A stretch of DNA of 64,000 bases from a virus, in IMG/VR virus record IMGVR_UViG_3300028840_004512, positions 3,333 through 67,332 of that record. The stretch is one strand, 5' to 3'. The translations under genes were made by a program, and so were the position numbers. The notes below the pieces were generated by a model. That model made no database searches. It was given only the letters and a program-made list of their open reading frames with translations, and was not told the DNA's origin. Below, one piece after another: positions 2,065-59,919 of this stretch; position 1 is the first letter of the stretch, and every line of letters begins with the position of its first letter.

Positions 2065-2649
2065 CTATACCCTCATTGCTCCAGTCGGATGAATGTTGAA
2101 GCTCAGCCTACGCTCAGTGCGTAGGAACACCTGAACAGCCCGAGCCATGTAGGCCGCCACAGTGACGATAAAGGGGAGGTGCTCCCCATCCTCACAGGTA
2201 GCCGCCCCCTCGGCGGGCTCATCGTCAATCGTGAAGCTCTCGGACCACAGCACACGGCCAAAGGCTCCATCCGCTGCCAGGGCCCCATGTAGGCACGGCG
2301 TGGAGGTCCGAGAGGCATAGCTCTGTACGAGCCTGCGGGCCGCTCCATTGTCCAAGCAGTCAACAAGGAGGTCAGCATCACCGAGGAGCTGCTCCACATT
2401 GGCCGACGCCAGCTTATGCGGGATAACCGTCAGCTTGACCCCCCAGAGCATCTGCATGGTCTGGTTGAGCGCCAAGACCTTCGTCTTGCCTACCATCCGC
2501 GCGCCGTGGAACTGACTAACGGTATTCTTCCTCTCCACTCTGTCGTGATCAATTACCTTGAATCTCACCTCTCGCTCTGACCGCAAGAACTGGACAACGT
2601 GCGACCCGAGAGCTCCAATCCCCACGATCGTCGTCCTATGCTTCCTCAT
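2065..2649 (-). CDS. ThiF/E1-like ubiquitin-like-protein activating enzyme
   Basis: IVGIGALGS glycine loop, IDHDRVERKN..SQ, VGKTKV, VDCLDN..AR, candidate catalytic Cys in ATCED. Confidence 0.9.
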   Translation of the reverse strand: MRKHRTTIVGIGALGSHVVQFLRSEREVRFKVIDHDRVERKNTVSQFHGARMVGKTKVLALNQTMQMLWGVKLTVIPHKLASANVEQLLGDADLLVDCLDNGAARRLVQSYASRTSTPCLHGALAADGAFGRVLWSESFTIDDEPAEGAATCEDGEHLPFIVTVAAYMARAVQVFLRTERRLSFNIHPTGAMRV

Positions 2650-2948
2650 CCTCCGTCCCTTTCGTGCTGCTTGCTAAAGGCTCTCGCCCTTCGCACCATG
2701 TCCTGCCAGTTGTGCGCCGTCGTCTCGAACAGCACCTTACCCCGCTCATCGCTGAGCTTGACGTTGTAGGTGGCTATCTTCCGCGGCTTCCGCACGTGGA
2801 GGTTCCGCAGCACTAGAGTGTGGGAGCCCCCTCCCTCTAGGTCTCGCTGCCACTCCTGGCGCTTAAACGAGTGCCACGAGGGCGCCGCGTAGCCCGAGGC
2901 GCTCCACTGGTCAGGAACGCCGGGGTCAGTCATTCGCCATCGGCCCAT
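2646..2948 (-). CDS. hypothetical protein
   Basis: 100-aa ORF coupled to E1 by an ATGA overlap. Confidence 0.65.
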   Translation of the reverse strand: MGRWRMTDPGVPDQWSASGYAAPSWHSFKRQEWQRDLEGGGSHTLVLRNLHVRKPRKIATYNVKLSDERGKVLFETTAHNWQDMVRRARAFSKQHERDGG

Positions 2949-2951
2949 CGC

Positions 2952-3227
2952 TCACCGTCCTTTCCGCCGGCGCTCACGACGCTGCGCTTTACGCTGGTTC
3001 CTCGTCAACGGCTTGCGGTTTGCTGCGGCACGCAGGCGCTTGCGCTCCTTGGCCGCCCACTCCAGCCGCTGCTCTTGCGTCATGGCGTGTAGCTTCGCGC
3101 TGAGCTCCGGAGGGATAGGCACTAAGGCCGTATCGTCCCCCTGCAGCATCCGCTGCACTGACTGCTCCATCGCCTCCTTGGTCAGCTCTGTGTTGGCCTT
3201 GTAGATGCGGCCGCTCATCGGGTCCAT
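2952..3227 (-). CDS. hypothetical protein, basic C-terminus
   Basis: 91-aa ORF with RBS-like GGAGG upstream. Confidence 0.7.
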   Translation of the reverse strand: MDPMSGRIYKANTELTKEAMEQSVQRMLQGDDTALVPIPPELSAKLHAMTQEQRLEWAAKERKRLRAAANRKPLTRNQRKAQRRERRRKGR

Positions 3228-3661
3228 GTCTGAAGCCTCCTCTTTGCCCCACGTCGTCCTCTGCCGCCCTTTCGGACCTCCTCGGGGAGCGGGGGCAGGT
3301 AGCGCCTAAAACGGCGCGAGAACCGCCGCAGCGTCCGGATGTCGCGGGGGTCATCAATGTCCGAGAGGTCTTTGACTGAGTAGAGCCACGCCTGCTCGGC
3401 GAGCTCCGCGTCAATGTCCTCGTCCTCCTTCTCCCAGGGGGCATGTGCCCAACGCCCACGACAGGGGTAGCCTAGGATGTGGATGGCGTTGAGCAACGCT
3501 TGAAGGGTGAGCATGGGGTGGCGCCAGTCGCCGAGCAGCCCTTGCTCTACGAGCTTAGGGATGTCCCCGTCCACCTGCTGACACAGACCGTTGAGGTCGA
3601 GCAGCTGCTTGTCCGTGGGGGGCTCCTCAGTGAACCTAATCTCCGTCCGAAACCAAGGCAT
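3215..3661 (-). CDS. hypothetical protein
   Basis: Start moved to ATG 3661 (MPWFRTEIRF), adjacent to the upstream stop. Confidence 0.65.
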   Translation of the reverse strand: MPWFRTEIRFTEEPPTDKQLLDLNGLCQQVDGDIPKLVEQGLLGDWRHPMLTLQALLNAIHILGYPCRGRWAHAPWEKEDEDIDAELAEQAWLYSVKDLSDIDDPRDIRTLRRFSRRFRRYLPPLPEEVRKGGRGRRGAKRRLQTWTR

Positions 3662-3662
3662 A

Positions 3663-4076
3663 CTAACGCTCCAAAAGCTGTAGGCAGCCGCATAGGAAGC
3701 GCGGCTTATCGTGCGCCTCACACCACCCACACTGATGATGGCCCGCCTCCCCCGCCTGCTTACAGACCACACGGTGGAGGTCGTCCTGCTGCGGTAGCTG
3801 CCCGGCAGCTTCAACGAAACGGACGAAAGCCTCCGCATTGTCTAGCGCCGTCTTGAGGGCGCACGCAGGTAGGTGAATCACGAGCTCCCTCTTGGGGTCC
3901 CATTGGTTGTCTTTCGAGCTGGCCCCGCACTCAGGACAGAAGGACAGCTCACCGCGGCCAGCATCCTCAAAGCTCAGCTCGTTGAAGTGCTCAAGAAGCT
4001 GCTCAACCACCTCCAGAGCGACACCAGCGGAGCTGTCTGCTGCTGGGCGCTCACCAGCCCCCATCACCCCTCCCAT
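3663..4076 (-). CDS. Cys/His-rich hypothetical protein
   Basis: CPEC, HxxxC and CGWC..H...F.CGC motifs. Confidence 0.65.
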   Translation of the reverse strand: MGGVMGAGERPAADSSAGVALEVVEQLLEHFNELSFEDAGRGELSFCPECGASSKDNQWDPKRELVIHLPACALKTALDNAEAFVRFVEAAGQLPQQDDLHRVVCKQAGEAGHHQCGWCEAHDKPRFLCGCLQLLER

Positions 4077-4302
4077 CGGTCAGGCGCTGGACCGGGTTAG
4101 GCTTTGGCTCAGGGAAGGGCTTGAGGAACTCATCTAGGAGCCATAGGCGGGCAGAGAAGTCCATCCCCCTCGTGGTCTGCAGAAGGTGGTCAACAGCCTT
4201 GTCGCTGAAGTGCTGGCGTAGCAGGCGCTCCATCCTCCCCATAGCGAGGCGCTTGTTGGCCGCCCCCACCGTGCCCGACGTAATCATGTAGCCTCCGCTC
4301 AT
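4051..4302 (-). CDS. hypothetical protein
   Basis: ATG overlaps the upstream stop (ATGA). Confidence 0.6.
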   Translation of the reverse strand: MSGGYMITSGTVGAANKRLAMGRMERLLRQHFSDKAVDHLLQTTRGMDFSARLWLLDEFLKPFPEPKPNPVQRLTDGRGDGGW

Positions 4303-4487
4303 GACCTCTCCCAAAGCTCAACGAGCTTGGCAAGCTGAGCATCCGAGAGCACCGGAGCCGCATCGTACTGCTCTCGAACGCTCGCGAGGAACTCCCGCTC
4401 CCACTCGTTGTAATCCGTCCCGCCCCGGTGCAAAGGCGTCTTCGCCGCCTCCTCACAGTCCCGCAGCATAGCTCCTATATCAGCCAT
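4299..4487 (-). CDS. small hypothetical phage protein
   Basis: NEWEREFLASVREQ...LSDAQLAKLVELW; directly after a consensus promoter. Confidence 0.75.
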   Translation of the reverse strand: MADIGAMLRDCEEAAKTPLHRGGTDYNEWEREFLASVREQYDAAPVLSDAQLAKLVELWERS

Positions 4488-4493
4488 GAAGGG

Positions 4494-4522
4494 ACTCTAC
4501 CCCATAGGCTGGTGATTGTCAA
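4494..4522 (-). promoter_or_regulatory. sigma70-type promoter, leaderless
   Basis: TTGACA-17bp-TAGAGT, then 6 nt to ATG 4487. Confidence 0.8.
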
Positions 4523-4941
4523 GTAGGCTCGCGGTGCCAACCGTACAGGGAGGAGGCGTTGGGAGGGGGGAGCACCCAATACTTACCGACCGAGCTCACC
4601 ATCTTGGCGTAGCGGCGCTCCTCCGCAGCGTGGTGGGCAGCCAAGGCAGCCCCTGAGCTGGAGCTGCCCTCATTCTGCAGCATCTCCGGAGGAACGCGGA
4701 GAGCCTTGGCTACACGGCGCTGAAACTCCTCCACCTCAGCCATAAGCTCCGCAAAGCTTGGCGCCGTTGAGGGGTTGTAGGCCACCGTGTTACGCCGCAG
4801 CGTATACAGGCTCTCAAAAGGCTCAGCGATATCCACACCCACCGTAGCCTCAAACCCCGCCCCGCAGACGTAACAGCGAATCTCCGCTCCCACCGAGGCC
4901 GCTCGGCCAGGCCGACACCGCGGGCAACGTGTGATGTTCAT
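4519..4941 (-). CDS. Zn-ribbon protein (paralog of 5822..6265)
   Basis: CPRC...CYVC N-terminus; C-terminal VGKYWVL...LYGWH. Confidence 0.75.
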   Translation of the reverse strand: MNITRCPRCRPGRAASVGAEIRCYVCGAGFEATVGVDIAEPFESLYTLRRNTVAYNPSTAPSFAELMAEVEEFQRRVAKALRVPPEMLQNEGSSSSGAALAAHHAAEERRYAKMVSSVGKYWVLPPPNASSLYGWHREPT

Positions 4942-4947
4942 GATTCG

Positions 4948-4976
4948 ACGGTACCCTATACCGGCGCGGTTGTCAA
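4948..4976 (-). promoter_or_regulatory. sigma70-type promoter, leaderless
   Basis: TTGACA-17bp-TACCGT, then 6 nt to ATG 4941. Confidence 0.8.
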
Positions 4977-5020
4977 AGCAGGGTGATGGGGGTCTCGGGC
5001 CCTTATGCTATCCTCGAAGC

Positions 5021-5896
5021 ATGGACCTGGTGCAGATGACGAGGGACGGCCTGGCGCGATTCGAGTACCTACCGCTGACGGTGACGGACGGGGAGCGAAC
5101 GTTGACGGTCAACGTGATGCGAGACGCCATCAAGTTTGACGACATGCCGGCGATGCGGTGGAACCGCACGGTGCTCGACCCAAACGATCGCTATGATGGT
5201 GTGAGACCGGGAGCAGACGGCCGAGAGATTCAGCAGATTGCTGACCTGCTGGACTGCTACCTCATGACGCCGCTACTGCTGGACCGGCTGACACTGGAGG
5301 CCAAGCGGAGCGGGGTCTACATCGACGCAGTGACGGGCTACAAGGAGGGGGGTAGGTGGGTCATCGGTGCCCTGGCAGACGTGCACAAGCTCCACAGGAA
5401 GATTCAAAGGGAGCTTGAGAAGGCCGGAGGCGATAACGGCGGCCTGGTGGCCGTGGTCGGTAAGTACTGGGTTCTCAGCAACTGGCTACTCAAAGGCCGC
5501 TTCAGCAACGTCCGTGGGCGCAACGTGCAGCTAATTAACTACGGCTGGTTCTCCAAGTACGGCAACTACACCAGCGTGACCGGCAAGCTCAAGTGCTACC
5601 AGGTGGCCCACATCCAGGGGGACGCACATAACACTCCCCACTTCGACCCCGCCCAGGTCATACGGCTTGTGCACAAGGACGTAATGCTCATCGAGGAGGA
5701 CAAGGAGCCCGTCGTGATGGACCTAGCCGACATCATGACCAGCCCCGAGCTGTGCGGGCTCGTGAGCCACGAGGGGCCGCTGAAGATCACCCGCGTGCCC
5801 AGCGTAGACAAGCTCGACCCGCTACCCGCTGGGGTCTACTCCGCTCCCCCCGAGCTTGTCGGCATCACGGACTGGGGCGAGACCCCTAGCGCATAA
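5021..5896 (+). CDS. conserved-looking hypothetical enzyme-like protein, oriented opposite to its neighbours
   Basis: Extended -10 TGcTATCCT 6 nt before ATG 5021; motifs VGKYWVLSN, INYGWF, HNTPHFD..QVIRLV. Confidence 0.8.
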   Translation: MDLVQMTRDGLARFEYLPLTVTDGERTLTVNVMRDAIKFDDMPAMRWNRTVLDPNDRYDGVRPGADGREIQQIADLLDCYLMTPLLLDRLTLEAKRSGVYIDAVTGYKEGGRWVIGALADVHKLHRKIQRELEKAGGDNGGLVAVVGKYWVLSNWLLKGRFSNVRGRNVQLINYGWFSKYGNYTSVTGKLKCYQVAHIQGDAHNTPHFDPAQVIRLVHKDVMLIEEDKEPVVMDLADIMTSPELCGLVSHEGPLKITRVPSVDKLDPLPAGVYSAPPELVGITDWGETPSA

Positions 5897-6265
5897 AAGC
5901 CTCCGAGCATGCCAGCCGTACAAGCTACGAGAACACGCTGGCGGCAACACCCACCACTTACCGGACGCAACCAACGCAGCGCTAGCTCGGCTACCCGCAC
6001 CACCCGTGACCAGCAGCTCCGCGGGCACCCTTTGGGCGCGGTAGAGACGGCGCTCTAACTCCGCCACGTTGGCCACAATCTCCGCCCCGGTCGGCCGCAA
6101 CGGCTCAAAGTTTACGGTATGGGCCGGGTACAGATGCTCAAAGGGCTCGGAGATGCTGATACCGACCTCCGCCTCAAAGAGCTGCCCGCAGAAATAGCAA
6201 CGCACAGTCCAGCCTACAGCCGCCGCTCGACCCGTCCGACACCGAGGACAACGCGTGACGTTCAT
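5822..6265 (-). CDS. Zn-ribbon protein (paralog of 4519..4941)
   Basis: MNVTRCPRCRTGRAA..RCYFCG..FEAEVG..I.EPFE.LY aligns with 4519..4941. Confidence 0.75.
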   Translation of the reverse strand: MNVTRCPRCRTGRAAAVGWTVRCYFCGQLFEAEVGISISEPFEHLYPAHTVNFEPLRPTGAEIVANVAELERRLYRAQRVPAELLVTGGAGSRASAALVASGKWWVLPPACSRSLYGWHARRLLCARGLAPVRDADKLGGSGVDPSG

Positions 6266-6633
6266 CGCGCCTCCTCGGTGTGGATGCCGTCATCCACCGC
6301 GCCGAAGAAGGGGCTCGGGTGGTCGCCCGGTATCAGCGCCTCGACCATACATAGGTTCGCCGCATCCACCAGGCACTCCTGATTGCCCGTCTCAAGGTAC
6401 AGCTCCAGGCGCTTGATGGCTGAGCGGATGTTGTGGCGCCGAGGGCGCGCGGTCCTGTCGGTCTCACGGTTTGAGCCATAGCGGAAGAAGCCCATGACCA
6501 GCCTAGCCCGCATCCAGCGCTCAAAGCGCTTGCTCCACTGCATATGCCACAGCTCCTGTACGGTATAGGGAGGGGGCCCCATACCCGCCTTGAAAAGCAG
6601 GTCCTCACGCAGCTGATCGTGGACGCTCCTCAT
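6262..6633 (-). CDS. putative all-alpha NTP pyrophosphohydrolase-like protein
   Basis: MGFFRYG...RLELYLETGNQECLVDAANLCMVE pattern. Confidence 0.5.
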   Translation of the reverse strand: MRSVHDQLREDLLFKAGMGPPPYTVQELWHMQWSKRFERWMRARLVMGFFRYGSNRETDRTARPRRHNIRSAIKRLELYLETGNQECLVDAANLCMVEALIPGDHPSPFFGAVDDGIHTEEAR

Positions 6634-6929
6634 AGCGCGACCGTAGACACCACTCGGGGAGGCTCTCCCCGAACAGCGACCCCGTCCGGCAGCTCCAGCA
6701 CACCCTTCACCGGGTCCTCATGCAGCGCCAAAAAGCTCACCACGTGCCCATCCCGCAAGGACCGCAGAATGTCCACCACCTCCAGAAGCAAGCAGTCGTC
6801 GTCCTCGTCCACATACGACGTGTCATCATCGCTAGTGTAGAGCAGCTGCAACACGAAGTCCTCACAGTGCCCACAGGACTCATCGCTCAGAAAGCTCTGC
6901 ATCTCCTCAGTCGCCGTCGTGTGATCCAC
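6630..6929 (-). CDS. acidic hypothetical protein
   Basis: 99-aa ORF in operon-like packing. Confidence 0.6.
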   Translation of the reverse strand: MDHTTATEEMQSFLSDESCGHCEDFVLQLLYTSDDDTSYVDEDDDCLLLEVVDILRSLRDGHVVSFLALHEDPVKGVLELPDGVAVRGEPPRVVSTVAL

Positions 6930-7383
6930 CGCCGTCCTCCTTTATGCGCGCGGCCCCAACCTCCAAAGCCGCTTCCAACTCCGCTCCTTCCGAAGCGCCG
7001 TAGACGTACTCCTGGAAGAAGATCGACCCTTTGGGCGCCTCCAACGGCTTAAGCTCCGTCACCTCGTGCTTAGGAGGCGGCTCATCCATCGGGACCTCAG
7101 TCAGCACAGGACCCTCGGGCCACCCCTTGAAGCAGTAGCGGCGAAGGACCCTACCATCCTCACGGGTGGTGGGCTCAATCTCATCGAACGCCTCCGCAGG
7201 AATGCCTATAGGCCCGAAGGGCGCCGGTCTCCGTCGACGCACCGCCAGCGCCTTATCGCAACCGCCCGAGAGCATCTTAAAGGTGGCGAGCAGCTCGTCC
7301 TCCAAAGAGAGGTCGTCCAGCATCTTCTCGTAGAACCGCTTGATGTCCTCACCGCTCATCGGCTTGTCGTCCTTGTCAGCCAT
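6907..7383 (-). CDS. hypothetical protein
   Basis: 158-aa ORF with overlapping stop/start. Confidence 0.7.
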   Translation of the reverse strand: MADKDDKPMSGEDIKRFYEKMLDDLSLEDELLATFKMLSGGCDKALAVRRRRPAPFGPIGIPAEAFDEIEPTTREDGRVLRRYCFKGWPEGPVLTEVPMDEPPPKHEVTELKPLEAPKGSIFFQEYVYGASEGAELEAALEVGAARIKEDGGGSHDGD

Positions 7384-7598
7384 CAGTTACGGAGCTCCTC
7401 ATTCACCCGCTTGTGCACGCGCAGTAGCGTGTCCTTCACAACCTCCGGCAAAGGCTCGTCCGCACGAGCCAATGCAACCGAAAGCTCCTCCGAGAGGATA
7501 GTCTTTAAGCCCTCCTGGTCAACATCCGGGAAGCGCCGCCGTACCGCCACAACCAAGACACTCATAGCCTGCTTATACGCCTCTTGACCTATCTCCAC
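7383..7598 (-). CDS. small helical hypothetical protein
   Basis: 71-aa ORF, TGATG coupling. Confidence 0.65.
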   Translation of the reverse strand: MEIGQEAYKQAMSVLVVAVRRRFPDVDQEGLKTILSEELSVALARADEPLPEVVKDTLLRVHKRVNEELRN

Positions 7599-7602
7599 CG
7601 CT

Positions 7603-8007
7603 TCACCTCAGCGGGCAGCCTAGCTGGGCTGCCTCCTTCTTCGCCTCATCATAGGTTTGGTAGGTACCGTACGTGATATCCTCCCCCCAAGGCACCGCCC
7701 CGGTAAGAGTGTACTTGCAGGCACATCCCGCCACTTTCCGAATGACGCAGAACTCAGGCTCGCTAGGCGATGTGAACGCCATCCAGATGCTGTAGAAGGC
7801 GCCCACGATGACCGCCAGAAGCCCAAGAGCTAGGGGGATCACTAAGAGCGCGTTCTTAACCCAAGCGATTCCCCACGCGCTCCGCGCTTTACGCTCCGCC
7901 CTCCCCACATCTGCTACCAGCTGCCGTATCTCAGCGTCCTTTGCCTTCGCAACCTCACGTAGCCTACCGACCTCTTCTGCCAGCAAGGTGCTCTCGTCAT
8001 CCGCCAT
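7603..8007 (-). CDS. membrane protein (coiled coil plus one TM helix)
   Basis: ALLVIPLALGLLAVIVGAFYSIWMAF hydrophobic stretch; start at MADDE. Confidence 0.7.
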   Translation of the reverse strand: MADDESTLLAEEVGRLREVAKAKDAEIRQLVADVGRAERKARSAWGIAWVKNALLVIPLALGLLAVIVGAFYSIWMAFTSPSEPEFCVIRKVAGCACKYTLTGAVPWGEDITYGTYQTYDEAKKEAAQLGCPLR

Positions 8008-8197
8008 GTTTCCCTCGTCCGACCAGCTCGCGCACGTCGACCCCACGAGCTGCAAGCTTCCTCACATCCACAAGGGCGATGGTCGGGGCTGTGACGCCCT
8101 GAGCTATCGCCCAGTCCTTCGCGCGCGTGCGCGTGCGTTCGATGACCACAATGTTAAGGCGATCATCGAGCGCAGCGTAACGATAACACCTCAGCAC
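7997..8197 (-). CDS. small hypothetical protein
   Basis: 66-aa ORF filling the gap after the Ubl gene. Confidence 0.5.
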   Translation of the reverse strand: MLRCYRYAALDDRLNIVVIERTRTRAKDWAIAQGVTAPTIALVDVRKLAARGVDVRELVGRGKHGG

Positions 8198-8529
8198 GAG
8201 CCGAAAGGCGTCTTTGGGCGGATCACTACCCTACTAGGAAGACCGTCCTTCGCATCGAACCTATCGACCACGAAGTCCTGGAAGCTCGCGTTGGGGTCCG
8301 CGTCGATACCAGGAATCCCTCCCGTCTGCACCGCCTCCGTCGCCCACTGAAGGATGTCAGCATCCGAGGCGTCCCGCGGCACAGGGTCCGGTAGATCACC
8401 GTTAGTACCTGACCAAGTAACATTGAGCCGCGCTTGGTCCTCACCGATGGCAGTAGCAGCATTGACCAGCTGCTCAACCGTCTCATCCTGCCGTTGCTCT
8501 AGCTCGTAGCCTTCTCCGTCCATTGCCAT
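8191..8529 (-). CDS. ubiquitin-like (beta-grasp) protein with a short C-terminal extension
   Basis: ARLNVTW...FVVDRF...VVIRPKTPFG-SC; C-terminal strand ends in Gly plus 2 residues; next to JAB. Confidence 0.7.
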   Translation of the reverse strand: MAMDGEGYELEQRQDETVEQLVNAATAIGEDQARLNVTWSGTNGDLPDPVPRDASDADILQWATEAVQTGGIPGIDADPNASFQDFVVDRFDAKDGLPSRVVIRPKTPFGSC

Positions 8530-8541
8530 TGTTCTATTCTC

Positions 8542-9171
8542 CTATTCCGATGGCGGTCCACCCACCATCACTTTAACGTCCGCCAGCGCTCGCTCACTGC
8601 ACGACCGCCGGCGCAGCTCGTGTGCCCACGCGGGCTGCGCTGTTATGAGCGACCAAACCTCATAGTCGTGCCTATCTGGGCCGACCCACTCGATCTTCCC
8701 GAAGTGCTGGACAGTCACAATCCACCACGTAAGCCGGCGTCCGAGAGCAGCCTCGATAGCTGCGAAGGTGGTCACGTCCGTGTTGGACGGCCACGGCTCC
8801 CCATCGAAGGGGTGGGTGTGGGCTACGCCCTGAATACGCTCGCGGTGCTCCCACAGCACATCCCACAGCGTGCGGCTGTCGGGGATAACGCCCCATGAGC
8901 GGCCGTCTGGTAGGTGCCAAAAGATCGGCTTGTGGTCCTTGTCGATGACCACTCCAGCCTCGGTGTCCATCTTGTCGCCCACTGTCAGGATGCGGACGGG
9001 GGGATCACAGAACTCGCCCCAGTAGGCTTGATGGTCGCAGTCCTTGCAGTAGTGCGCCCCCATCTGCCACCGACCCTTGCTAACGGGGACCTTAGCTGTG
9101 TTGGTGCTCTCACACCTTGGGCAACGCAGCCCCTTTGTCGCGCGCTCCACACGTTGCGATACTGTGATCAT
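8542..9171 (-). CDS. JAB/JAMM (MPN+) metallopeptidase with N-terminal Zn ribbon
   Basis: E(AG)...AHTHP....PSNTD JAMM motif; CPRC/CKDC. Confidence 0.88.
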   Translation of the reverse strand: MITVSQRVERATKGLRCPRCESTNTAKVPVSKGRWQMGAHYCKDCDHQAYWGEFCDPPVRILTVGDKMDTEAGVVIDKDHKPIFWHLPDGRSWGVIPDSRTLWDVLWEHRERIQGVAHTHPFDGEPWPSNTDVTTFAAIEAALGRRLTWWIVTVQHFGKIEWVGPDRHDYEVWSLITAQPAWAHELRRRSCSERALADVKVMVGGPPSE

Positions 9172-9183
9172 CCCGTCGTCCTC

Positions 9184-9603
9184 TTAGTTAAGGTCCTGTT
9201 CGTCCACCAACCCCTTCAGAGCCTTCAGGTGCTCCACAATGACACCAGGGGGCGGCGCCGGAGCGTCGGGCGGCGCCTCTAGCATCAGTACGACCCCCAC
9301 CGAGCGCCCCTCCACCACGCCCTCCAGATGAATACCATCCCGGTCCCAACGGGCCTCGGGGGGAGCATCAAACACAGCCAGGGCCGCCACCAGGTCTACC
9401 TGCGCCGCCGGAGCCCAGCGCTCCCCCTCAATCACAATCGGGGCGGGAAACAGGCCCACCACCCACAAGCCGTCGTCGTCCTGCTGCGCGAAGATCCCTA
9501 TAGGTAAGTCCGCATAAAGCGCAAAGCACCCTCCAAGACGCTCCCCCACCGACCTTACCCACTCCGGTAGCCTCAAAGGCTCGTAGCAAACCTCAGTCGA
9601 CAT
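9184..9603 (-). CDS. hypothetical protein
   Basis: 139-aa ORF; its ATG overlaps the end of the orphaned E2 3' fragment. Confidence 0.7.
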   Translation of the reverse strand: MSTEVCYEPLRLPEWVRSVGERLGGCFALYADLPIGIFAQQDDDGLWVVGLFPAPIVIEGERWAPAAQVDLVAALAVFDAPPEARWDRDGIHLEGVVEGRSVGVVLMLEAPPDAPAPPPGVIVEHLKALKGLVDEQDLN

Positions 9604-9730
9604 GTCTGTGCACCACCAATCTGTCCGTCCTTCGCGCCTCGCGAATGACGCTCGGGAGCGACTCTAGCGTAAACCACCTATCACCCTGCGTCCCCTGCTC
9701 AAAGTCGGGGTCGTCGTAGTGTGCTGTGAT
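9593..9730 (-). pseudogene. orphaned 3' end of the E2-like gene, displaced by an HNH insertion
   Basis: Translates ITAHYDDPDFEQGTQGDRWFTLESLPSVIREARRTDRLVVHRHVD*, homologous to the C-terminus of 10401..11321; 20-nt identity 9639-9658 vs 10447-10466; no start codon. Confidence 0.9.
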
Positions 9731-9735
9731 CGCCC

Positions 9736-10392
9736 TTATGCCCCCATCTTCCGACGCCGCCGCTCCAACGGCCGCGAGATGGCTTCCTCGTGTGACAACC
9801 CCCGCTTCAGCCGCGCCAGGATAGTAGTATCATTCAACCCCACCTCCTCCGCCCACGCAGCCACACACTGCGTCCGCCCAAAGGCCGTCAGAAGCCTGTT
9901 GTCTCGCCTGTTACGACCCTGCTCCTTCGGTGTAGCCCAGCGCACGTTCCCAGGTACATAGTCCCCCTCACCATCTATACGATCCAGTGTGTGCTTGTCC
10001 GAAGGGGCTTCGCCTACGTGTTCCAAGAAGCGTATAAAACCTTGGGCGCCTTGCCACTCCGCAGCTACCCGCACACCCTGCGCACCGTATCTCTCGAACA
10101 TGATGAAGGCGGGGTCGACGCACCTCCGTACCATCTGCCACCAGTGCCTATGCTCGTGAGTGTTGGACCTCCCGTGCACTGCCCGCCTCTTAGCTAAGGC
10201 TGCTGCCTGCTCACGATTGTAGCAGCCGCACGACACCGTACGCCCATACCGAAGATCGTACTTGTTGGTCCTCATAGCACCTCCGCAGTCACAACGACAT
10301 TCGATGTCCCTCACACCACCCACGCGGGTTATCTCTAACCGACCGAACCTATCCCCCACCAATACCCTCGTCTCTGCTCTCTCTGTAGCCAT
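9736..10392 (-). mobile_element. free-standing HNH-type homing endonuclease gene
   Basis: GDRFGRL..CRCDCG...VSCGC; HTLDRID....YVPGNVRWATPKEQGRNR. Confidence 0.88.
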
Positions 10393-10397
10393 AATGA

Positions 10398-10426
10398 ACG
10401 TTAGCTCACATGCCGGAGTACAACAA
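10398..10426 (-). promoter_or_regulatory. putative leaderless HNH promoter embedded in the E2-like 3' end
   Basis: TTGTTG-17bp-TAACGT, then 5 nt to ATG 10392. Confidence 0.55.
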
Positions 10427-11321
10427 GCTCGCCTCGCCTATCCGCTTCGCGAATGACGCTCGGGAGACTCTCCAACGTAAACCGAGTGTCCCCGCGAACA
10501 CCCGTGCCGTGATCCTCCAAACAGATACCGCTGTCAATCACGCGCATAGTGGTCCGAGAGCAAGTGCACTGAAAGCGTTGCTCACCCAGCCGAAAGGTTA
10601 CCACCATCTCGTCGCCACCTCCCCGCGCGGGCCTGTGATCTAGGTAGGTGGCGCCCCCAACAGCCAAGGAAGCCTTGGCTGCCTCGCCAAAGTCCTCCGC
10701 CGCCAGCTCTCGACGCCCTACCGCGTCCCCAAGCTGCTCCTGAATGCGACGCCGGCGCTCCTCACGCTCCCGGCGCTCCCGCTCCTCTTGCCGACGGCGC
10801 TCCACCTCAGCACGGTGCCACGTCTCGACCCGGAAGGCCGCGTCGAGCGCTGGCGCCACCTCGGAGATGCGGTCCACGGTCTCAGCTCGGTCCTGATATG
10901 CCTGTAGCACCTCATACTCGGCTCCTAACGGCATATCCTGCTCCACATAGACCAGGGGGCCATCCTCACAGAAACGGCCCGCTACGACCCGCTCAAAGCG
11001 GTCCAGGCCCTGCTCCACAAGGTGTACGCGGGGGAAGGTGGCGAGCATGGTGACGGGGTCCGAGACGACCACGTGGTCGCGCACCAGCCGGTCCCCTATG
11101 AGGTAGCCGCTCACGCGGTCCTTAAGCATATCGGGGTCAGCCTCTCCGCGGCCTTGTAGCGTGACGTTGCGGCCCGACACACCGAAGGTCCACCACCCAT
11201 GCTCACGCGGCCTGCGGCCCTGAATACGCCACGTACGGTCAAAGGTGCGCAGAGACCTACCGCCTACCCACGGAGCCGTGACGGTCTCCCCTTCCGTCTG
11301 CAGCAGGTCTCTCCAGCTCAT
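10401..11321 (-). CDS. divergent E2/UBC-like protein (C-terminal domain) with coiled-coil linker
   Basis: DSGICL...FTLESLPSVIREA resembles the E2 active-site G.ICL...tl..vl..i; lies between vWA and JAB/Ubl. Confidence 0.6.
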   Translation of the reverse strand: MSWRDLLQTEGETVTAPWVGGRSLRTFDRTWRIQGRRPREHGWWTFGVSGRNVTLQGRGEADPDMLKDRVSGYLIGDRLVRDHVVVSDPVTMLATFPRVHLVEQGLDRFERVVAGRFCEDGPLVYVEQDMPLGAEYEVLQAYQDRAETVDRISEVAPALDAAFRVETWHRAEVERRRQEERERREREERRRRIQEQLGDAVGRRELAAEDFGEAAKASLAVGGATYLDHRPARGGGDEMVVTFRLGEQRFQCTCSRTTMRVIDSGICLEDHGTGVRGDTRFTLESLPSVIREADRRGELVVLRHVS

Positions 11322-11530
11322 CCGCTCCGTCCCTTGTTACAGCTAGCTTGATCGAAGATGTTTGGGTCCGTGCCCGAGCACGGCATACGCTCGCCGCAGG
11401 TGGTACAGACTAGCGCCTTGCCCGTCCCGCGACACTTAGGGCACGAGCGCTTGCGCTTGCAAGGGTCGCGTCCAGAGCCGCCGCACAGGTCACAGCACCC
11501 GCGCAGCTCCACATCAATTCGTCCCATCAT
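11318..11530 (-). CDS. DnaJ-type CxxCxGxG zinc-finger protein
   Basis: CDLCGGSG, CPKCRGTG, CTTCG. Confidence 0.65.
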   Translation of the reverse strand: MMGRIDVELRGCCDLCGGSGRDPCKRKRSCPKCRGTGKALVCTTCGERMPCSGTDPNIFDQASCNKGRSG

Positions 11531-11889
11531 GGGTAGTCCTCTAGGTCCAGCTCGGGGAAGATAGCCTTAGCCTCCTTAGCGGCAGCCGCGGAGACCTGCT
11601 GCATGCGGCGCTCCAGCGCCGTCAGACGCTCTTTGACCATCTTCGCTGCCTCCTGCTTCACCGCTGCCGGATAGGCTTTCGCAAGACCCTCCAGAAAAGC
11701 GCGCGGAGAGATGGGGATACCGTTGACGGTGATAGCCACCTCGACAACCCCATCCGCCGCTTTGAACTCTCGGGCAGGATCGCGCCCATGGCAATGCACC
11801 ACGAGCGCGCGGATGAGCAGCTGGTCCTCCACGCTGCTCCCCGTCATCCCCGACAGCCTGAAGACCTCACTCATACCGAGGCCCCTCAC
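11527..11889 (-). CDS. hypothetical protein
   Basis: ORF in operon; start uncertain. Confidence 0.65.
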   Translation of the reverse strand: MRGLGMSEVFRLSGMTGSSVEDQLLIRALVVHCHGRDPAREFKAADGVVEVAITVNGIPISPRAFLEGLAKAYPAAVKQEAAKMVKERLTALERRMQQVSAAAAKEAKAIFPELDLEDYP

Positions 11890-12058
11890 TTGAAGCTATC
11901 TCCGGTAACCCCGCCACCCGAGCCCTCCACGCCTCCTCACTCTCTCCCCGTCGGCGACGCCGCGCTAACCGCAGTTTACCCTCCGGCGTGTTGAGTGCTC
12001 GCGAGATCGCCGCGGCTCTCCGTTTCTTTGCCCCCGCACGTTTGTGGACCTCTTTCAT
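11867..12058 (-). CDS. small basic protein
   Basis: 63 aa, Arg/Lys-rich, RBS-like GGAG. Confidence 0.5.
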   Translation of the reverse strand: MKEVHKRAGAKKRRAAAISRALNTPEGKLRLARRRRRGESEEAWRARVAGLPEIASSEGPRYE

Positions 12059-12077
12059 CTTCGCGCTCCGTGCTTCC

Positions 12078-13964
12078 TTACTGAAAAGCGAGAGGCTTAC
12101 GCAGCAGGTCAGTCTTGATGATCTGATCGACCAACGTCTCTCGGACCCTAACCGCCCCGCGCTGCACCTGCCCGACAGGAGTAGAGGCTACCAGCGCGCG
12201 AACGGTGCGCGGGATGGCGTAGGGGTCCTCAAAGGTGCTGTTGCCAATGCGGAAGCAAGGGATGCCCAGCTCTGCCGCAGTATCCTGCACACAGGTGGCA
12301 GCCATACCGAAGTGCGACTCAACCTTGATCAAACCAAAGGCCATCGGCCTTAGCCCAGACACCTGCACATCGTGGGTGAAGGTGCGTGCCTTCTCGTCGC
12401 CGATGAAGATAAACAAGGTGTCCTCATCATCCTTCGGCGGTCGATGCTGCAGCACCCGAATGCCTGCACCGTAGGCCGTCCCGCCCCCGGCGCGGAAGCC
12501 CGTGAAGGCGTGGCGAACGCCTACAGCGGAAGGGTGCTTGATCTCCACCTCACGCCCCGTCGTGTTGAACACCGAGACGTGTAGCTTGTCGAGCGGGAAG
12601 CCCTGCAGAAAGCGCTCGATGTACTGCTTGGCCGTTGGGATGCAATCCACCATCGAGCCCGAGATGTCGACCATGACGTAGACACGCAGGCCCTTGGTGA
12701 CCTCCTCGACAGCCTTTTTGACCGCTGTGTCCGCGGCCTCTTGCAGCTTCTCTCGGGCCTCCTTCGAGCGCACGCGCTCCGCAATGTTGGCCGCACGCTG
12801 GTCCTCCGCCTTCTGGATAGCCTGCTCCCACCGCCGCTTGATGCCTGCAACCTTGAGCAGCCCCAGCTCCTCTAAGGTCGGTGTGTAGATGATCAGGTCC
12901 TTGTCCGACAGACAGCCGGCGCCAACGGACGCGGCCATAACCGCTCGCGTGATGCCTACCTCCTTGGGGACCACACTAACCAACCGCTTAAACCCTGGCT
13001 TCTCGGCCTCGATGCGCCGGCACACCTGCTCCTCGTTCAAGCCCTCCCAGGTCTCCTCTTTGGTGACAGCCTTGCCAATGGCGAGGGACCGTCGACCATC
13101 CTTGGCCTGGTCTTGCTTCCAGCGCAGAACCTCAAAGAAGGATTCACTCTGCGGCTTGTAGCCCACACCGCAGGCAAGATTGATAACCGTGCTGCGAAAC
13201 CCAGCCTTGACCAGCCCCTGCAGCATCTTGGGGTTGTCCTCGCGGTATCGAAGCCACCGCTTGACCGCCTTGGGCCACCGGCCCAGAAAAGGCTTCCGCG
13301 CCGACTGCCCGAAGCCCAGCTCGCGGTTGAGCTGCGCAATCTCAGGCAGCTCCAACAGGTAGCGGATACGCTGCAGAAGCTTCGGGCTGAGATCCTTCCC
13401 ATCCTTCCGGACGATCAAGACCATTGCCTCCCCCACATCCCGGTAATCCTCGTCCGGGAACAGAACCTTCCCGTCCTCCTTAATCGGCTCACCGCAACGA
13501 GACTGCACCAGCATGAAGGCCGCCAGAGCAACCTTCAGGTCCCTGTGCTCCTGTCCGAAAGCGTAGGAGGCCCACCGCGCCGCGAACTCGTTATCGAGCT
13601 TCCACACCTCGGCGATCTGCTTGTACACCCAAACAGCCGCCTCGGGAAACAGCCCCGGCTTGCGGTACTGCCAGCTCTGCGTACCGTTGCGAACGACACC
13701 GTCGTCACCCAGGACGCCCAGCTTAACACGCGACCGCTTCCGCCCGACCTTACGGAGCTCAAAGACAACCTTCTGGCCATCCTCCTCCTTGTACACCACC
13801 GGCTTCCAGGACGCGCCGATCGCTGAGCCGTCGGCGCTCACCACCCCTGGTCTCCCGTGGTACAGGTGATCTCCCCAGCTCAGCAGCGTCTGAATGATCC
13901 GCTCCGCTGGCCCTAACGCCTCTCGGTCCATAACACTCTCCGTCCGTTGATATCCGCCCGACAC
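12078..13964 (-). CDS. Ro60/TROVE-like helical protein with C-terminal vWA (MIDAS) domain
   Basis: VMVDISGSM, GGGT, FIGDE MIDAS elements; LGRWPKAVKRW...VK...S...L....YKP resembles the Ro60 WGR..RKA..W...KY...S..D.LRL.H.KP segment (recalled). Confidence 0.7.
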   Translation of the reverse strand: MSGGYQRTESVMDREALGPAERIIQTLLSWGDHLYHGRPGVVSADGSAIGASWKPVVYKEEDGQKVVFELRKVGRKRSRVKLGVLGDDGVVRNGTQSWQYRKPGLFPEAAVWVYKQIAEVWKLDNEFAARWASYAFGQEHRDLKVALAAFMLVQSRCGEPIKEDGKVLFPDEDYRDVGEAMVLIVRKDGKDLSPKLLQRIRYLLELPEIAQLNRELGFGQSARKPFLGRWPKAVKRWLRYREDNPKMLQGLVKAGFRSTVINLACGVGYKPQSESFFEVLRWKQDQAKDGRRSLAIGKAVTKEETWEGLNEEQVCRRIEAEKPGFKRLVSVVPKEVGITRAVMAASVGAGCLSDKDLIIYTPTLEELGLLKVAGIKRRWEQAIQKAEDQRAANIAERVRSKEAREKLQEAADTAVKKAVEEVTKGLRVYVMVDISGSMVDCIPTAKQYIERFLQGFPLDKLHVSVFNTTGREVEIKHPSAVGVRHAFTGFRAGGGTAYGAGIRVLQHRPPKDDEDTLFIFIGDEKARTFTHDVQVSGLRPMAFGLIKVESHFGMAATCVQDTAAELGIPCFRIGNSTFEDPYAIPRTVRALVASTPVGQVQRGAVRVRETLVDQIIKTDLLRKPLAFQ

Positions 13965-56633: not shown

Positions 56634-58901
56634 TCAGGAGGAGGTCTGCACTACCTCGGGCAATACCGTAACCGAGTCTGGAGTCTTGGTGATGACCTCA
56701 GACTCCTCAATGACCAGGTTGCCGTCAGAATCCAGCTTATCCGTCTGCAAGGTGCTGCTCAGTAAAGTAGTGTAGCCAGAGATCGTCACGTTGGCAAAGC
56801 TCACGCCCTCGACCGCTAGGATAACGTCCATCAGATCTGAGACGTAGAGGGACACCCCAAACTCCCTGTCCTTCAGCACGCCATCAATCGCAGTCTCCCC
56901 CGCTGTGCGCACCTGCTCAAGGGAGTATCCGATATCCACCCCAACACGAGCGGTGATCCACGGGTATACCAGGAACTTCCCGCCCGAGACCACCTCCACG
57001 GTCTGCGTGACCTCCTTCCTAGCCGTAAGGTAGGTCTCAAGGGAGTCTATGAGCCCGTTGCTGGGCTCGGCGTAGAAGCCCGCCGCATCACGCGTGAGAA
57101 CGGGGACCGTTACCAGGTTCGCCTTGCAATCGGCTGACAGGATCTTGTCCAGGTGCTCGTCTATGGTATCCAGAGCCAGCGTAACCGTCGCCGCAGCGTT
57201 GTTGGCCAAGGCCGGGTCGATGGTATCCGCAACGTCCGAGAGGGTTACCTGGAAGCTCTTAAACAGCCCTGTGCTGTCGGACGGCGTGGTGCTGTCGTAG
57301 TAGCCAATGACCACGTCCCCAGCAGCCCGCGCATCCTCCAGGCTCTTGAGGTAGCTGTCCGCACCGTCCAGCTGGATAGCCGTCTTCGAGAGCCCTATCT
57401 TATCTACCTCGTCCGTGATGAGGCCCCCGGCCGCCACCTGCGAATCCGCCGCTCCTCGCATCGTGGCGGTCTGAGAGATAATGTCATCCTGATGGCCGTC
57501 GATAGTGTCCAGGTAGACCTTCAAGGCATCCTTGGTTGGGTCTGTCAGCTGATCTGCCCCCGTAGCGATCGCGTCAATAGCCGCCTTACCATCCGTCACC
57601 TCCACCTTGGCGGCATTAGCCGACACGTCCACATCCAGGGACAGGTTGCGGTTGCCGCGAATGCCCGAGATGATAGCCGTGTTGTTGGTGTCGATGGTGT
57701 TCATCGACGTGACGACGTTGTCGAGCGCCGTCGTGATGGTTGAGGAGTAGGAGAGCAGCAGGTTGAGCAGTCCCGTGGTAGCTGTGGTGGCCGCTGTTAT
57801 CTCACCACGGATGATATCCGTCGCGCCCTCCAGGGCGCTTGTGATCTCCAGGATAGCGTCCTGCAGTACCAGGTCCGTCGCTGCCGACCGCGAGGAGATA
57901 GCCTTGGCCACCGCCACACGCCCATATACCGGGTCTGCATAGGAGCCCGCCAGCGCGTCGTAGTCCTCCCCGGTGACCGCCACCCGGCGGGAGTTAAACA
58001 CCCGCCCGGCAAATGCCTTAGCGCGGTCGATGCTCTCCAGGTCATCACCGCCCGAGCTCTTGGCGCCATTGTTGATGGTCAGGTCAACCGTCTCCCCCAC
58101 CACCACAAGCGGCGTGACCACGTCCTGGATCGTATCCTTGGCCACAATCCCCGCCTTCCCCGCAGTCGCAACATAGGTGACCTCAATCGAGGCGTTGGTA
58201 GCAGGGATATTGCCAGCCGAGCCGTCCCCAAAACGAAGGGTTGGAGGATCGTCGTTGTAGCCCACCTCGTACTGGTCGGTCTCGTCGAAGGTGAGGAAGT
58301 CCTCCTCATCCCAGCTCGCCCCATCGACCTTCACCTCCACCGAGCCAGAGGCCACATACCGCTCATCAGGGACACGGCTCAGCTCGAAGACCTGGTTTGC
58401 TGTTCCGTCTGAGGTGAAGGTCTCAGTCGTGGTCTCACCCTCGTACACAGGGATGAGCTTGGATGTTCCTGCCGTCTGCTCTGCCGGGGAGAACTCGACG
58501 GCCTTTCCCGCCTCAAAGATAAGGTCGTTAGGCCCCTGAAACTGTAAGCCCTCGGTGATCTCCACCGTGAAGGTCTTCGCCACGGCCACACTGACCGTTA
58601 GGTCCGTGGAGGACGCCACCGCACCGCCCATTTTGTAGCCCAGCTGTCGACAGATACGCGAGACAGCCCTCCGGGTCCTAGCGGTCTCCAGGTAAACCTC
58701 AGTGGCTCGACGGTCGAGGTAGAAGCTGAGCGAGTCTAGACCAAAAGCGATGAGGTCCAGAAGCATCATCCCTAAGCTGGCCAGCGCGAAGTCGTTGTAA
58801 TAGGCCGCAAACTTGACCTGCAGGCGCGCGCGGAGGTCGTCAACGTGGGAGTCGAAGTCGTAAGAAATAAAACGGACGCGGTTAATCGACGCGGTGGCCA
58901 T
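56634..58901 (-). CDS. baseplate J/gp6-like wedge protein with a long helical insertion
   Basis: DFDS...L, YLDRRATEVYLETA, FGDG..G..P, GGDD.ES....K, RVAVT.EDY. Confidence 0.9.
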   Translation of the reverse strand: MATASINRVRFISYDFDSHVDDLRARLQVKFAAYYNDFALASLGMMLLDLIAFGLDSLSFYLDRRATEVYLETARTRRAVSRICRQLGYKMGGAVASSTDLTVSVAVAKTFTVEITEGLQFQGPNDLIFEAGKAVEFSPAEQTAGTSKLIPVYEGETTTETFTSDGTANQVFELSRVPDERYVASGSVEVKVDGASWDEEDFLTFDETDQYEVGYNDDPPTLRFGDGSAGNIPATNASIEVTYVATAGKAGIVAKDTIQDVVTPLVVVGETVDLTINNGAKSSGGDDLESIDRAKAFAGRVFNSRRVAVTGEDYDALAGSYADPVYGRVAVAKAISSRSAATDLVLQDAILEITSALEGATDIIRGEITAATTATTGLLNLLLSYSSTITTALDNVVTSMNTIDTNNTAIISGIRGNRNLSLDVDVSANAAKVEVTDGKAAIDAIATGADQLTDPTKDALKVYLDTIDGHQDDIISQTATMRGAADSQVAAGGLITDEVDKIGLSKTAIQLDGADSYLKSLEDARAAGDVVIGYYDSTTPSDSTGLFKSFQVTLSDVADTIDPALANNAAATVTLALDTIDEHLDKILSADCKANLVTVPVLTRDAAGFYAEPSNGLIDSLETYLTARKEVTQTVEVVSGGKFLVYPWITARVGVDIGYSLEQVRTAGETAIDGVLKDREFGVSLYVSDLMDVILAVEGVSFANVTISGYTTLLSSTLQTDKLDSDGNLVIEESEVITKTPDSVTVLPEVVQTSS

Positions 58902-59919
58902 TAGATACTCCGGTAGTCAGCGCGGTCACCTCGTCCCAGCCCCGCTGGAGACGTGAACGGACGACGCGATGGTTTATGCCTAGGCGCTCGGCCCACTCCT
59001 GAAGACACCGAGTCTCCCCACCCATAGCGATGAGACGATTGTTCCGCCGGTTGCGCTGCTGTGTCCGCGAAACGGCCCACCGGCAATTGTCTGGAGAGTA
59101 GCCCAGATCCGCGTCAATACGATCCAATGAGTGCTTCGCAGAGGGCCTAGGACCCACATCCCCTAAAAAACACTCAAACGACCCCTCCCACTCCGAACAT
59201 ACCTGGACACCGCGACCACCGTACAGAGGAAAGTCCTTGTTGGTGGGGTTGAGGCAACGGTTCCGCATAAACAACCACGCCCGATATTCAGCTGGAAACT
59301 GCTTCCTGACCGAGACGCTTCGCTCGAAGGTTCCGTGTAACGGAGGGGTCTCTAGAGCCTTTTCAACCGACCACCCCGCTTGGAGCCTAGCCGCTACAGT
59401 AGTCGGAGCGAGCCCCGCCTCCCGAGCCAGCTGAGACAAACACTTGACCTCGCCCTTATACCTAAACTCTCGGTTAGACCTTATGTTCTGCGTCTGCTGT
59501 CTCCGAGAGGCCCACCGACAGTTGTCCGGCTCGTAGTGACCCGCAGAGTCAATACGGTCCAGCGTGGCCTCTGGATAGGGCTTGCGCCCCATGTCCGCCA
59601 AAAAGCCCTCGTAGGAGGCCGCCCAACGTTCTGCTACGCACACGCGCCCGCGAGACAGCTTGGCTCGGCGCTTCATGAGCTGCCAAGCCCGATACTCGGG
59701 GACATCGAAAGACTCCCCATGCTTTCTCATCCCCTGACCGACGGTGATACACCCGCAGGACTGCGTATTACCGCTCCGCAGGCTGTCCGTGCGGACCTCC
59801 AATCTAGCGCCGCAATCACACAGTACTTCCCAAGCCGTACAAGGTCCCTGGTTGGGGGCGCGCTCCCCTACAAGTAGCCTACCAAACCGCTGCCCTGTAA
59901 GGTCCAACCGCGGAGGCAT
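58882..59919 (-). mobile_element. homing endonuclease with two tandem HNH-like domains
   Basis: DLTGQRFGRL..CDCG..SCGC; LDRID....Y.PDNCRWA twice. Confidence 0.9.

Follow-up and report, generated by a model that had tools for sequence, protein, structure and literature searches.

We examined a 64,000-nucleotide (nt) stretch of a virus genome (positions 3,333 to 67,332 of IMG/VR virus record IMGVR_UViG_3300028840_004512), hereafter the window, in which a complete gene of 306 codons (g306) is followed first by a predicted free-standing HNH homing endonuclease gene (HNH) and then by a second, startless g306 end, the remnant. An initial annotation of this DNA had described the GICL ending of the gene, the HNH, a trailing gene end that overlaps the next ATG and a 20-nt identity between the two gene ends, all of which we reproduce. 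The features of the locus, in window positions, are as follows (aa, amino acids; ORF, open reading frame):

10401..11321, minus strand: g306, the live gene, ORF of 306 aa
10521..10523, minus strand: Cys267 codon (TGT), within the sequence motif GICL
10401..10517, minus strand: live tail, short-loop type, codons 269-306 and stop (EDHGTGVRGD...HVS)
10447..10466, plus strand: 20-nt exact direct repeat, live-tail copy, in the same codon phase as the other copy
10398..10426, minus strand: promoter-like TTGTTG-17-TAACGT, a chance-level match
10393..10400, minus strand: 8-nt spacer from the g306 stop (TAA) to the HNH start (ATG)
9736..10392, minus strand: predicted free-standing HNH homing endonuclease gene, 218 aa (phrog_374)
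9731..9735, minus strand: 5-nt junction (GGGCG on the minus strand) from the HNH stop to the first remnant codon
9593..9730, minus strand: remnant, 3' end of a long-loop g306 allele, 45 codons and TGA
9639..9658, plus strand: 20-nt exact direct repeat, remnant copy (codons for LPSVIRE)
9184..9603, minus strand: 139-aa ORF, between the remnant and a JAB-type peptidase gene

The 218-aa product matches phrog_374 ('HNH endonuclease', E 8.4e-49) and phrog_3377 (E 4.2e-45), and matches no HNH model in Pfam. Its translation contains DRIDGEGDYVPGNVRWATPKEQGRN, which we take to be an HNH motif, and its C-terminal end holds a helix-turn-helix-like module (TAFGRTQC.AAWAEE). A protein search returned 274 matches at E ≤ 1e-20, the best of them apart from the protein itself at 54% identity, and no donor of the HNH was identified among these 274. 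The public gene call begins at a later ATG and gives 179 aa; the N-terminal 39 aa of the longer product are conserved in L030, one of the related loci described below, and the 218-aa start is supported because the N-terminal GxRFGRL segment is kept there.

The 8-nt spacer holds no Shine-Dalgarno-like sequence, which the neighbouring genes do have. HNH is probably translated by coupling to the g306 stop codon, the simpler reading of its start given the missing Shine-Dalgarno sequence, the 8-nt gap and the overlap of the HNH start with the g306 end in L030 and in a second related locus, L039. The initial annotation had instead given HNH a promoter of its own in the last codons of the live tail. 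The sequence TTGTTG-17-TAACGT is indeed present, but the proposed role does not hold up: it agrees with 3+3 of 12 consensus positions, and equal or better sites number 629 and 633 on the two strands of the 64,000 nt. A scan of 8000-12200 returned no promoter-like site at 9/12 or better, and terminator-like sites occurred about as often as expected (2 found, 1.7 expected).

Gene ends and loop classes

By its sequence, g306 is a member of a large giant-phage family that carries no annotation: 858 proteins (90% clusters) are found at E ≤ 1e-3, a search at the 50% identity level gives 401 representative clusters, and g306 has zero matches in Pfam, PHROG and NCBIfam. The best 120 homologues are 303-330 aa each at a query coverage of 98-100%, and the nearest relative, P0002, is 74% identical. 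At the DNA level, 8500-11400 of the window has no match among deposited phages. The protein begins with a beta-rich domain, continues as a long helix and finishes with a C-terminal domain that carries Cys267. An alignment of 84 C-terminal domains shows this Cys, and no other, to be invariant (84 of 84). AlphaFold2 (AF2) models reach a predicted local distance difference test score (pLDDT) of 88 for the whole protein and 76 for the C-terminal domain alone. In a separate comparison, residues 11-136 weakly resemble the double-OB inter-domain of the mycobacterial proteasome ATPase Mpa/ARC, which handles the Pup tag (Z 5.5 and 5.2; for Z 5.5, VIA-align with the whole model, root-mean-square deviation (rmsd) 4.3 over 105 aligned residues), a likeness too weak to use.

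The live gene ends in ...IDSGICLEDHGTGVRGDTRFTLESLPSVIREADRRGELVVLRHVS, that is ...GICL-EDHGTGVRGD...HVS and stop, and 10401..10517 is the minimum stretch over which live tail and remnant differ in type. Read in its frame, the remnant translates as ITAHYDDPDFEQGTQGDRWFTLESLPSVIREARRTDRLVVHRHVD followed by its stop. No start codon that would give at least 30 aa lies in this frame, and the end of the remnant (TGA, 9593-9595) overlaps the start (ATG, 9601-9603) of the 139-aa ORF. Every tail residue that is invariant across the g306 family is retained; its first codon, ATC, specifies Ile in place of the Leu of homologues.

We measured loop length as the number of residues between G[IV]CL and GD..TLESLP, which could be parsed in 241 of 270 homologues taken, the remaining 29 being truncated, frameshifted or outside the search pattern. 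All 241 keep Cys267, and since the remnant has no start, neither of the two outcomes that the initial annotation had named as speaking against it (a fragment with its own start and independent homologues, or homologues devoid of the Cys) is seen. A 13-aa loop, the type of the live gene, is found in 162 of the 241, and a 19-aa loop reading GICLTAHYDDPDFEGGTRGD in 38. Given these classes among full-length homologues, the remnant comes from the 3' end of a long-loop allele, whereas the live tail is of the short-loop type. Full-length homologues reading GICLTAHYDDPDFE... exist, as the initial annotation had predicted, and the remnant is therefore read as beginning at the codon after Cys267. Where it can be aligned to long-loop alleles, the homology begins in codon 268, the one that follows Cys267, or immediately ahead of it, in agreement with the breakpoint placed earlier just after GIC.

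Live tail and remnant share 74% DNA identity and differ by a 7-codon loop indel, and are thus not a fresh duplication made in place. Both contain the 20-nt block, of which 0 are expected by chance. Recombination between its two copies could possibly excise 808 bp in frame, as the placement of the repeats would allow. A joint free of HNH, lacking 9659-10466, was not found in the contigs of two runs, both possibly the source of the record and both in the form of contigs, which drop rare variants; no RNA run was listed among those that carry the sequence. Additionally, mapped onto a tree made from the remainder of the protein, the length class of the loop behind the Cys changes 9 times (shuffled labels need 21), with at least 5 of the 9 changes forced by well-supported branches, so that the gene end or the loop has switched type repeatedly.

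Nuclease genes behind g306 in related loci

An alignment-based scan returned 70 related loci. Their viral contigs measure 5.5 to 619 kb, and most exceed 100 kb. We compared the gene rows of these loci with the window proteins by tblastn; g306 alone as the query found no related loci among viral contigs. A metagenome scan with the five closest g306 proteins gave at least 32 loci, with a best identity of 61% among those listed, which did not include the contigs of the g306 homologues P0002, P0003 and P0004. A nuclease ORF starts at the g306 stop, or overlaps it, in five of the 70 viral loci (L020, L030, L039, L042 and L046), a patchy presence at one genomic site that the window shares. No HNH follows g306 among the metagenome loci listed, four of which repeat viral loci. 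Coordinates in three of the five loci are:

L020:5950-6747: EndoVII/HNH-type nuclease after g306 (phrog_1035)
L046:5969-6790: EndoVII/HNH-type nuclease after g306 (phrog_1035)
L042:5996-8589: after g306, a double HNH ORF (387 aa) and a staphylococcal-nuclease-like ORF (416 aa; PF00565, E 3.4e-15)

In L030, L039 and L042 the genes directly after g306 belong to the same PHROG as the window HNH. A tree of 26 HNH segments groups the five behind g306 (one each from the window, L030 and L039, two from L042) into a single clade with an SH-aLRT (approximate likelihood-ratio test) support of 97, apart from the 21 other segments, among which is the window's own second HNH gene. The recurrence of the slot and the site-specific clade point to a lineage of free-standing homing endonucleases associated with the 3' end of g306, and on this comparison the window HNH is a predicted free-standing homing endonuclease at that end, not an element inside the gene. 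The earlier view that HNH was inserted at the Cys codons is at odds with its position 8 nt after an intact g306 stop, an arrangement that its clade-mates in L030, L039 and L042 repeat. Near relatives of L030 that are free of HNH are present in the set (L022, L077, L033 and L088).

The window's second HNH gene (58882-59919, minus strand, 345 aa) holds two HNH-like segments in tandem, which share 45% and 36% identity with the first HNH; the gene falls outside the clade of those behind g306. The nuclease of L020 and L046 is of another type (phrog_1035, E 8e-16 and 7e-20). Its N-terminal part corresponds to the helix-turn-helix-like module found at the C-terminus of the window HNH, as if domains had been shuffled between endonucleases with a common target site.

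We scanned each of the 70 loci for another copy of its own g306 tail. L042 holds one 2.5 kb downstream (E 4e-7), behind the staphylococcal-nuclease-like ORF: an acidic g306 tail (RGGKLVVWRHVAGDPG...DWDDDD), recognisable for only about the last 25 codons and with a breakpoint unlike that of the window. The stranding of gene ends therefore recurs, at no fixed codon. Weaker matches in L016, L017, L028 and L048 (E 0.007-0.014) are situated upstream, on the opposite strand or at a great distance, and were judged to be chance. The one in L016 (L016:9813-9845, 3.9 kb downstream, E 0.013) consists of 11 aa, DPERRLVVFRQ, that match the end of the g306 tail of that locus; this match is probably chance but could be a decayed remnant.

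Origin of the arrangement

We consider one-sided homing the likely origin of the locus, with a probability of roughly 0.7: HNH would occupy the slot after g306, with an intact short-loop g306 at the upstream joint and the end of a long-loop allele at the downstream, non-homologous joint. The upstream joint is the canonical one, intact g306 and then HNH, and the joint downstream of HNH is irregular. In this scenario the endonuclease would have cut, at codon 268 or farther upstream, an HNH-free, long-loop g306 allele of a co-infecting relative. Next, the break end on the upstream side would have invaded the HNH-bearing genome, and the 3' part of the donor's g306 would have been copied together with HNH. 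With its private 139-aa ORF downstream, the recipient would have offered no homology to guide the join, and the new strand would have been fused illegitimately to the other end of the break, leaving the recipient's own g306 end as a startless remnant. This remnant would still supply the ribosome-binding region and the overlapped start of the 139-aa ORF, which may be at least part of the reason why it persists. Cleavage, direction of transfer and one-sided repair are what we infer from the arrangement of the letters. According to the available part of one review, free-standing endonucleases cut hundreds to thousands of bp away from their own gene, and homing with one-sided homology leads to illegitimate repair at microhomologies (PMC2988022).

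G+C content at third codon positions (GC3) is 0.615 in the live tail, 0.667 in HNH, 0.743 in g306 codons 1-268, 0.717 in the remnant and 0.729 in the 139-aa ORF, which weakly agrees with the proposed direction of transfer. Several observations weigh against one-sided homing, among them that this GC3 contrast comes from 39-81 codons and is marginal (about 2 standard errors, estimated). We found no close HNH-free relative, the best g306 relative being 74% and the best HNH relative 54% identical, and with no such relative or donor the direction, that is which tail is native, and the age of the event are inferred only; the tails offer too little length and too much conservation to be placed. Furthermore, the identity of the live g306 to P0002 stays evenly within 0.68-0.80 in all six segments compared and is 0.74 in the tail; since no chimera boundary appears, the copied tract may span much or all of g306, or the polarity may be reversed. 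Excess similarity of the tails among HNH-bearing loci is absent (z ≤ 1.5), no sequence or codon signature specific to endonuclease-bearing loci is seen at the GICL codons, and sliding identity of L030 against its HNH-free relatives shows no conversion boundary.

A reversed polarity, in which the live g306 is wholly native and HNH was imported from a donor together with the remnant, and perhaps with the 139-aa ORF, appears unlikely. The donor HNH would in that case have split or truncated a long-loop g306, and the remnant would be foreign passenger DNA. Such an import would fit the even identity of the live g306 to P0002 across all segments, tail included, and the lack of relatives of the 139-aa ORF, as for imported accessory DNA. 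However, L030, L039 and L042 show an intact g306 and then HNH, with the downstream joint irregular in either reading; the GC3 of the remnant and the 139-aa ORF resembles that of the surrounding genes, whereas live tail and HNH are lower; and the overlap of the remnant stop with the next ATG is the ordinary style of this gene row.

We are somewhat more doubtful of the full proposal of the initial annotation, that HNH recognises and cleaves precisely the codons of the active-site Cys in an E2-type protein and has its own promoter in the replacement tail. The start of the remnant at the codon after the invariant Cys267 speaks for it, as do the neighbours of g306, namely a JAB protein, a ubiquitin-like (Ubl) protein ending in Gly and a ThiF-type E1 (described below); the motif IDSGICL is one that we presume to resemble an E2 active-site signature. 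Against this, the L042 remnant breaks elsewhere, g306 has no significant fold or profile match that would identify it as an E2, and the supposed promoter is a 6/12 match of a kind met once per ~100 nt, in a region where the promoter scan returned none. The HNH start 8 nt past the g306 stop, with no Shine-Dalgarno sequence, instead fits translational coupling. With HNH placed after the stop and the L042 breakpoint placed elsewhere, the junction is better read as the end of an irregular repair than as a choice of target. It is likewise improbable that the HNH lineage homes on the codons around the invariant Cys of a phage Ubl-conjugation cassette, with codon 1 of the remnant marking the actual break; if it did, repeated endonuclease-driven exchange of 3' ends would also explain the loop-length switches after the Cys, at least five in number.

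A tandem duplication of the g306 3' end in place, followed by divergence and by the later landing of HNH between the copies, is very unlikely. The tails form a direct repeat whose copies face the same way and share an identical core of 20 nt, but these copies differ by the 7-codon indel and by 26% of bases, and each matches a distinct allele class that is full-length in other phages. A diverged non-coding copy should moreover lose invariant residues or frame, and the remnant has lost neither. Finally, that a metagenome assembly joined two strains is hardly credible: the window does come from a metagenome-assembled virus record, but contigs of two runs from two studies, either of which may be the source of the record, carry 8500-11400 identically and unbroken, and the 20-nt repeat, with HNH between its copies, is shorter than the usual assembly words.

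The observation as such is well explained by known biology. The closest known case, by analogy, is the C-terminal replacement seen in fungal mitochondria, where, as far as the available text of the source goes, the endonuclease ORFs called mORFs bring a foreign C-terminus and leave the native one downstream, as in atp6 of Allomyces macrogynus, atp6, atp9, cox2 and nad3 of Glomus sp., atp9 of Rhizopus and cox2 of Mortierella (PMC3630166). Shared with those cases are the gene core, the in-frame replacement C-terminus, the endonuclease ORF and the displaced C-terminus, as well as a displaced copy outside the coding gene and C-termini that have diverged (63.5% nt identity in Glomus atp6, 74% here) (PMC3630166). 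The order described for Allomyces atp6, with replacement tail in frame, endonuclease ORF and displaced tail, is present at our locus. Compared with the described mORFs, the host is a giant phage and not a mitochondrion, the nuclease is HNH rather than LAGLIDADG or GIY-YIG, the endonuclease is a separate ORF 8 nt past the stop instead of an in-frame fusion, and no close uninvaded relative fixes which tail is native.

Among phages, the insertion of mobE in Aeromonas phage Aeh1 reportedly splits nrdA ('genes in pieces'), and both pieces are said to be expressed and to reassemble into a working enzyme. There, too, a free-standing HNH-family gene is tied to the disruption of a conserved phage gene; in contrast, g306 is complete ahead of HNH and the remnant is startless. 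The intronless homing of the T-even Seg and Mob endonucleases, as described in the part of the source at hand, shares a free-standing endonuclease gene between conserved genes, a presumed cut in the neighbouring conserved gene with co-conversion of the flank and, where homing is one-sided, non-homologous junctions (PMC2988022). None of the T4 cases is described in that part of the source as retaining a piece of its target gene (PMC2988022).

The putative ubiquitin-like cassette

The genes around g306 form a conserved row, of which the following further members lie in the window:

12078..13964, minus strand: 628-aa VWA protein with a C-terminal VWA domain, upstream of g306
8542..9171, minus strand: JAB/MPN-type peptidase with an N-terminal zinc ribbon
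8191..8529, minus strand: Ubl candidate, ending ...PFGSC
2065..2649, minus strand: ThiF/E1-like protein, 194 aa (PF00899, 80.7-81.7 bits, above cut-off)

Across the 70 viral loci, we find g306 in all 70 and the 628-aa VWA protein, the JAB peptidase and a small protein in 68 each. The VWA protein (VWA_2, E 3.8e-4) and the JAB protein (Prok-JAB, E 1.4e-4) score below the Pfam cut-offs. Members of the Ubl candidate family end in ...RPKTPFG followed by 0 to ~60 extra residues, and a ThiF-type protein of 190-194 aa comes directly after the Ubl gene in L020, L039 and L046. The cassette was found in more than 100 giant-phage loci from viral and metagenome data (L006-L107). The full row consists of the VWA protein, the Cys protein g306, JAB, a Ubl of ~85 aa and a ThiF-type E1 of ~190 aa, and in the window, where it spans 2065-13964 on the minus strand, lineage-specific inserts interrupt it. 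None of the 70 loci has a counterpart of the window's 139-aa, 70-aa or 120-aa ORF, and for the 139-aa ORF a search of 5.8 billion proteins returned only itself, with 0 related loci among viral and metagenome contigs. The JAB of the window carries an N-terminal zinc-ribbon extension of ~60 aa (CxxC...CxxC); most relatives match it only from about residue 65, and L050 does so from residue 1.

Whether g306 acts as the E2 of this cassette stands at near even odds, the putative role being suggested by gene context and the invariant Cys, and not by the endonuclease: the breakpoint, which the initial annotation took as independent support for a catalytic GICL, adds little beyond conservation itself. 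The context and the Cys favour the assignment, while fold and profile searches returned no significant match. In the model, the C-terminal domain runs from a helix at 200-221 through four strands (225-263) and the Cys267 loop to a helix at 286-296, and the g306 models, with two helices, a four-strand meander, a Cys loop and a helix, are compatible with a UBC-like core. Upon structural comparison of this domain with VIA-align, the best Z of 4.4 lies within the tool's stated noise range, as do the E2-like matches to Ubc9 (4y1l_C; Z 3.5, rmsd 4.0, 81 aligned) and the Tsg101 UEV domain (Z 3.5, 88 aligned), and those to FANCL and RWD entries (Z 3.3-3.7). Foldseek gave a best E of 0.056 for the C-terminal domain, which is not significant; for the whole model it ranked RNase II OB domains first (E 3.4e-3), a match that we rejected at a TM score of 0.15. 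None of the 84 C-terminal domains matched the E2 families of Pfam at E ≤ 5, a PDB profile search with g306 returned nothing below E 0.07, and a search of the ESM Atlas gave no usable match. Complex prediction of the C-terminal domain with the Ubl candidate scored 0.13, 0.62 and 0.00, which is evidence neither way.

The cassette resembles prokaryotic E1/E2/JAB/Ubl operons, in so far as the available parts of two sources describe them, in its ThiF-type E1, its JAB, its small Gly-ending protein and its protein with one invariant Cys (Iyer, Burroughs and Aravind 2006, PMC1779556; for Bub pathways, PMC11601596), and class 6d E2-like proteins, in the portion of the first source that treats them, are likewise without the classical His (PMC1779556). 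Unlike those operons, it shows no E2 profile match (0/84), a large N-terminal beta-rich domain in g306 and a constant pairing of g306 with the 628-aa VWA protein, so that membership is putative. We found no description of the cassette in the open-access papers searched, and a 2021 jumbo-phage review contains neither 'JAB' nor 'E1-like'.

Overall, the locus would be a natural footprint of a free-standing homing endonuclease that moves between diverged giant phages where homology is one-sided, dragging the end of the neighbouring gene along and stranding the end of another allele. Such remnants may be used to bound cleavage sites and to detect the exchange of gene ends in metagenomic phage genomes. 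For annotators and phylogeneticists, the last 40 codons of g306 may have a history unlike that of the rest of the gene. The cassette itself, with the parts list of a Ubl-conjugation system, widespread and unannotated, may be a more promising subject than the endonuclease.

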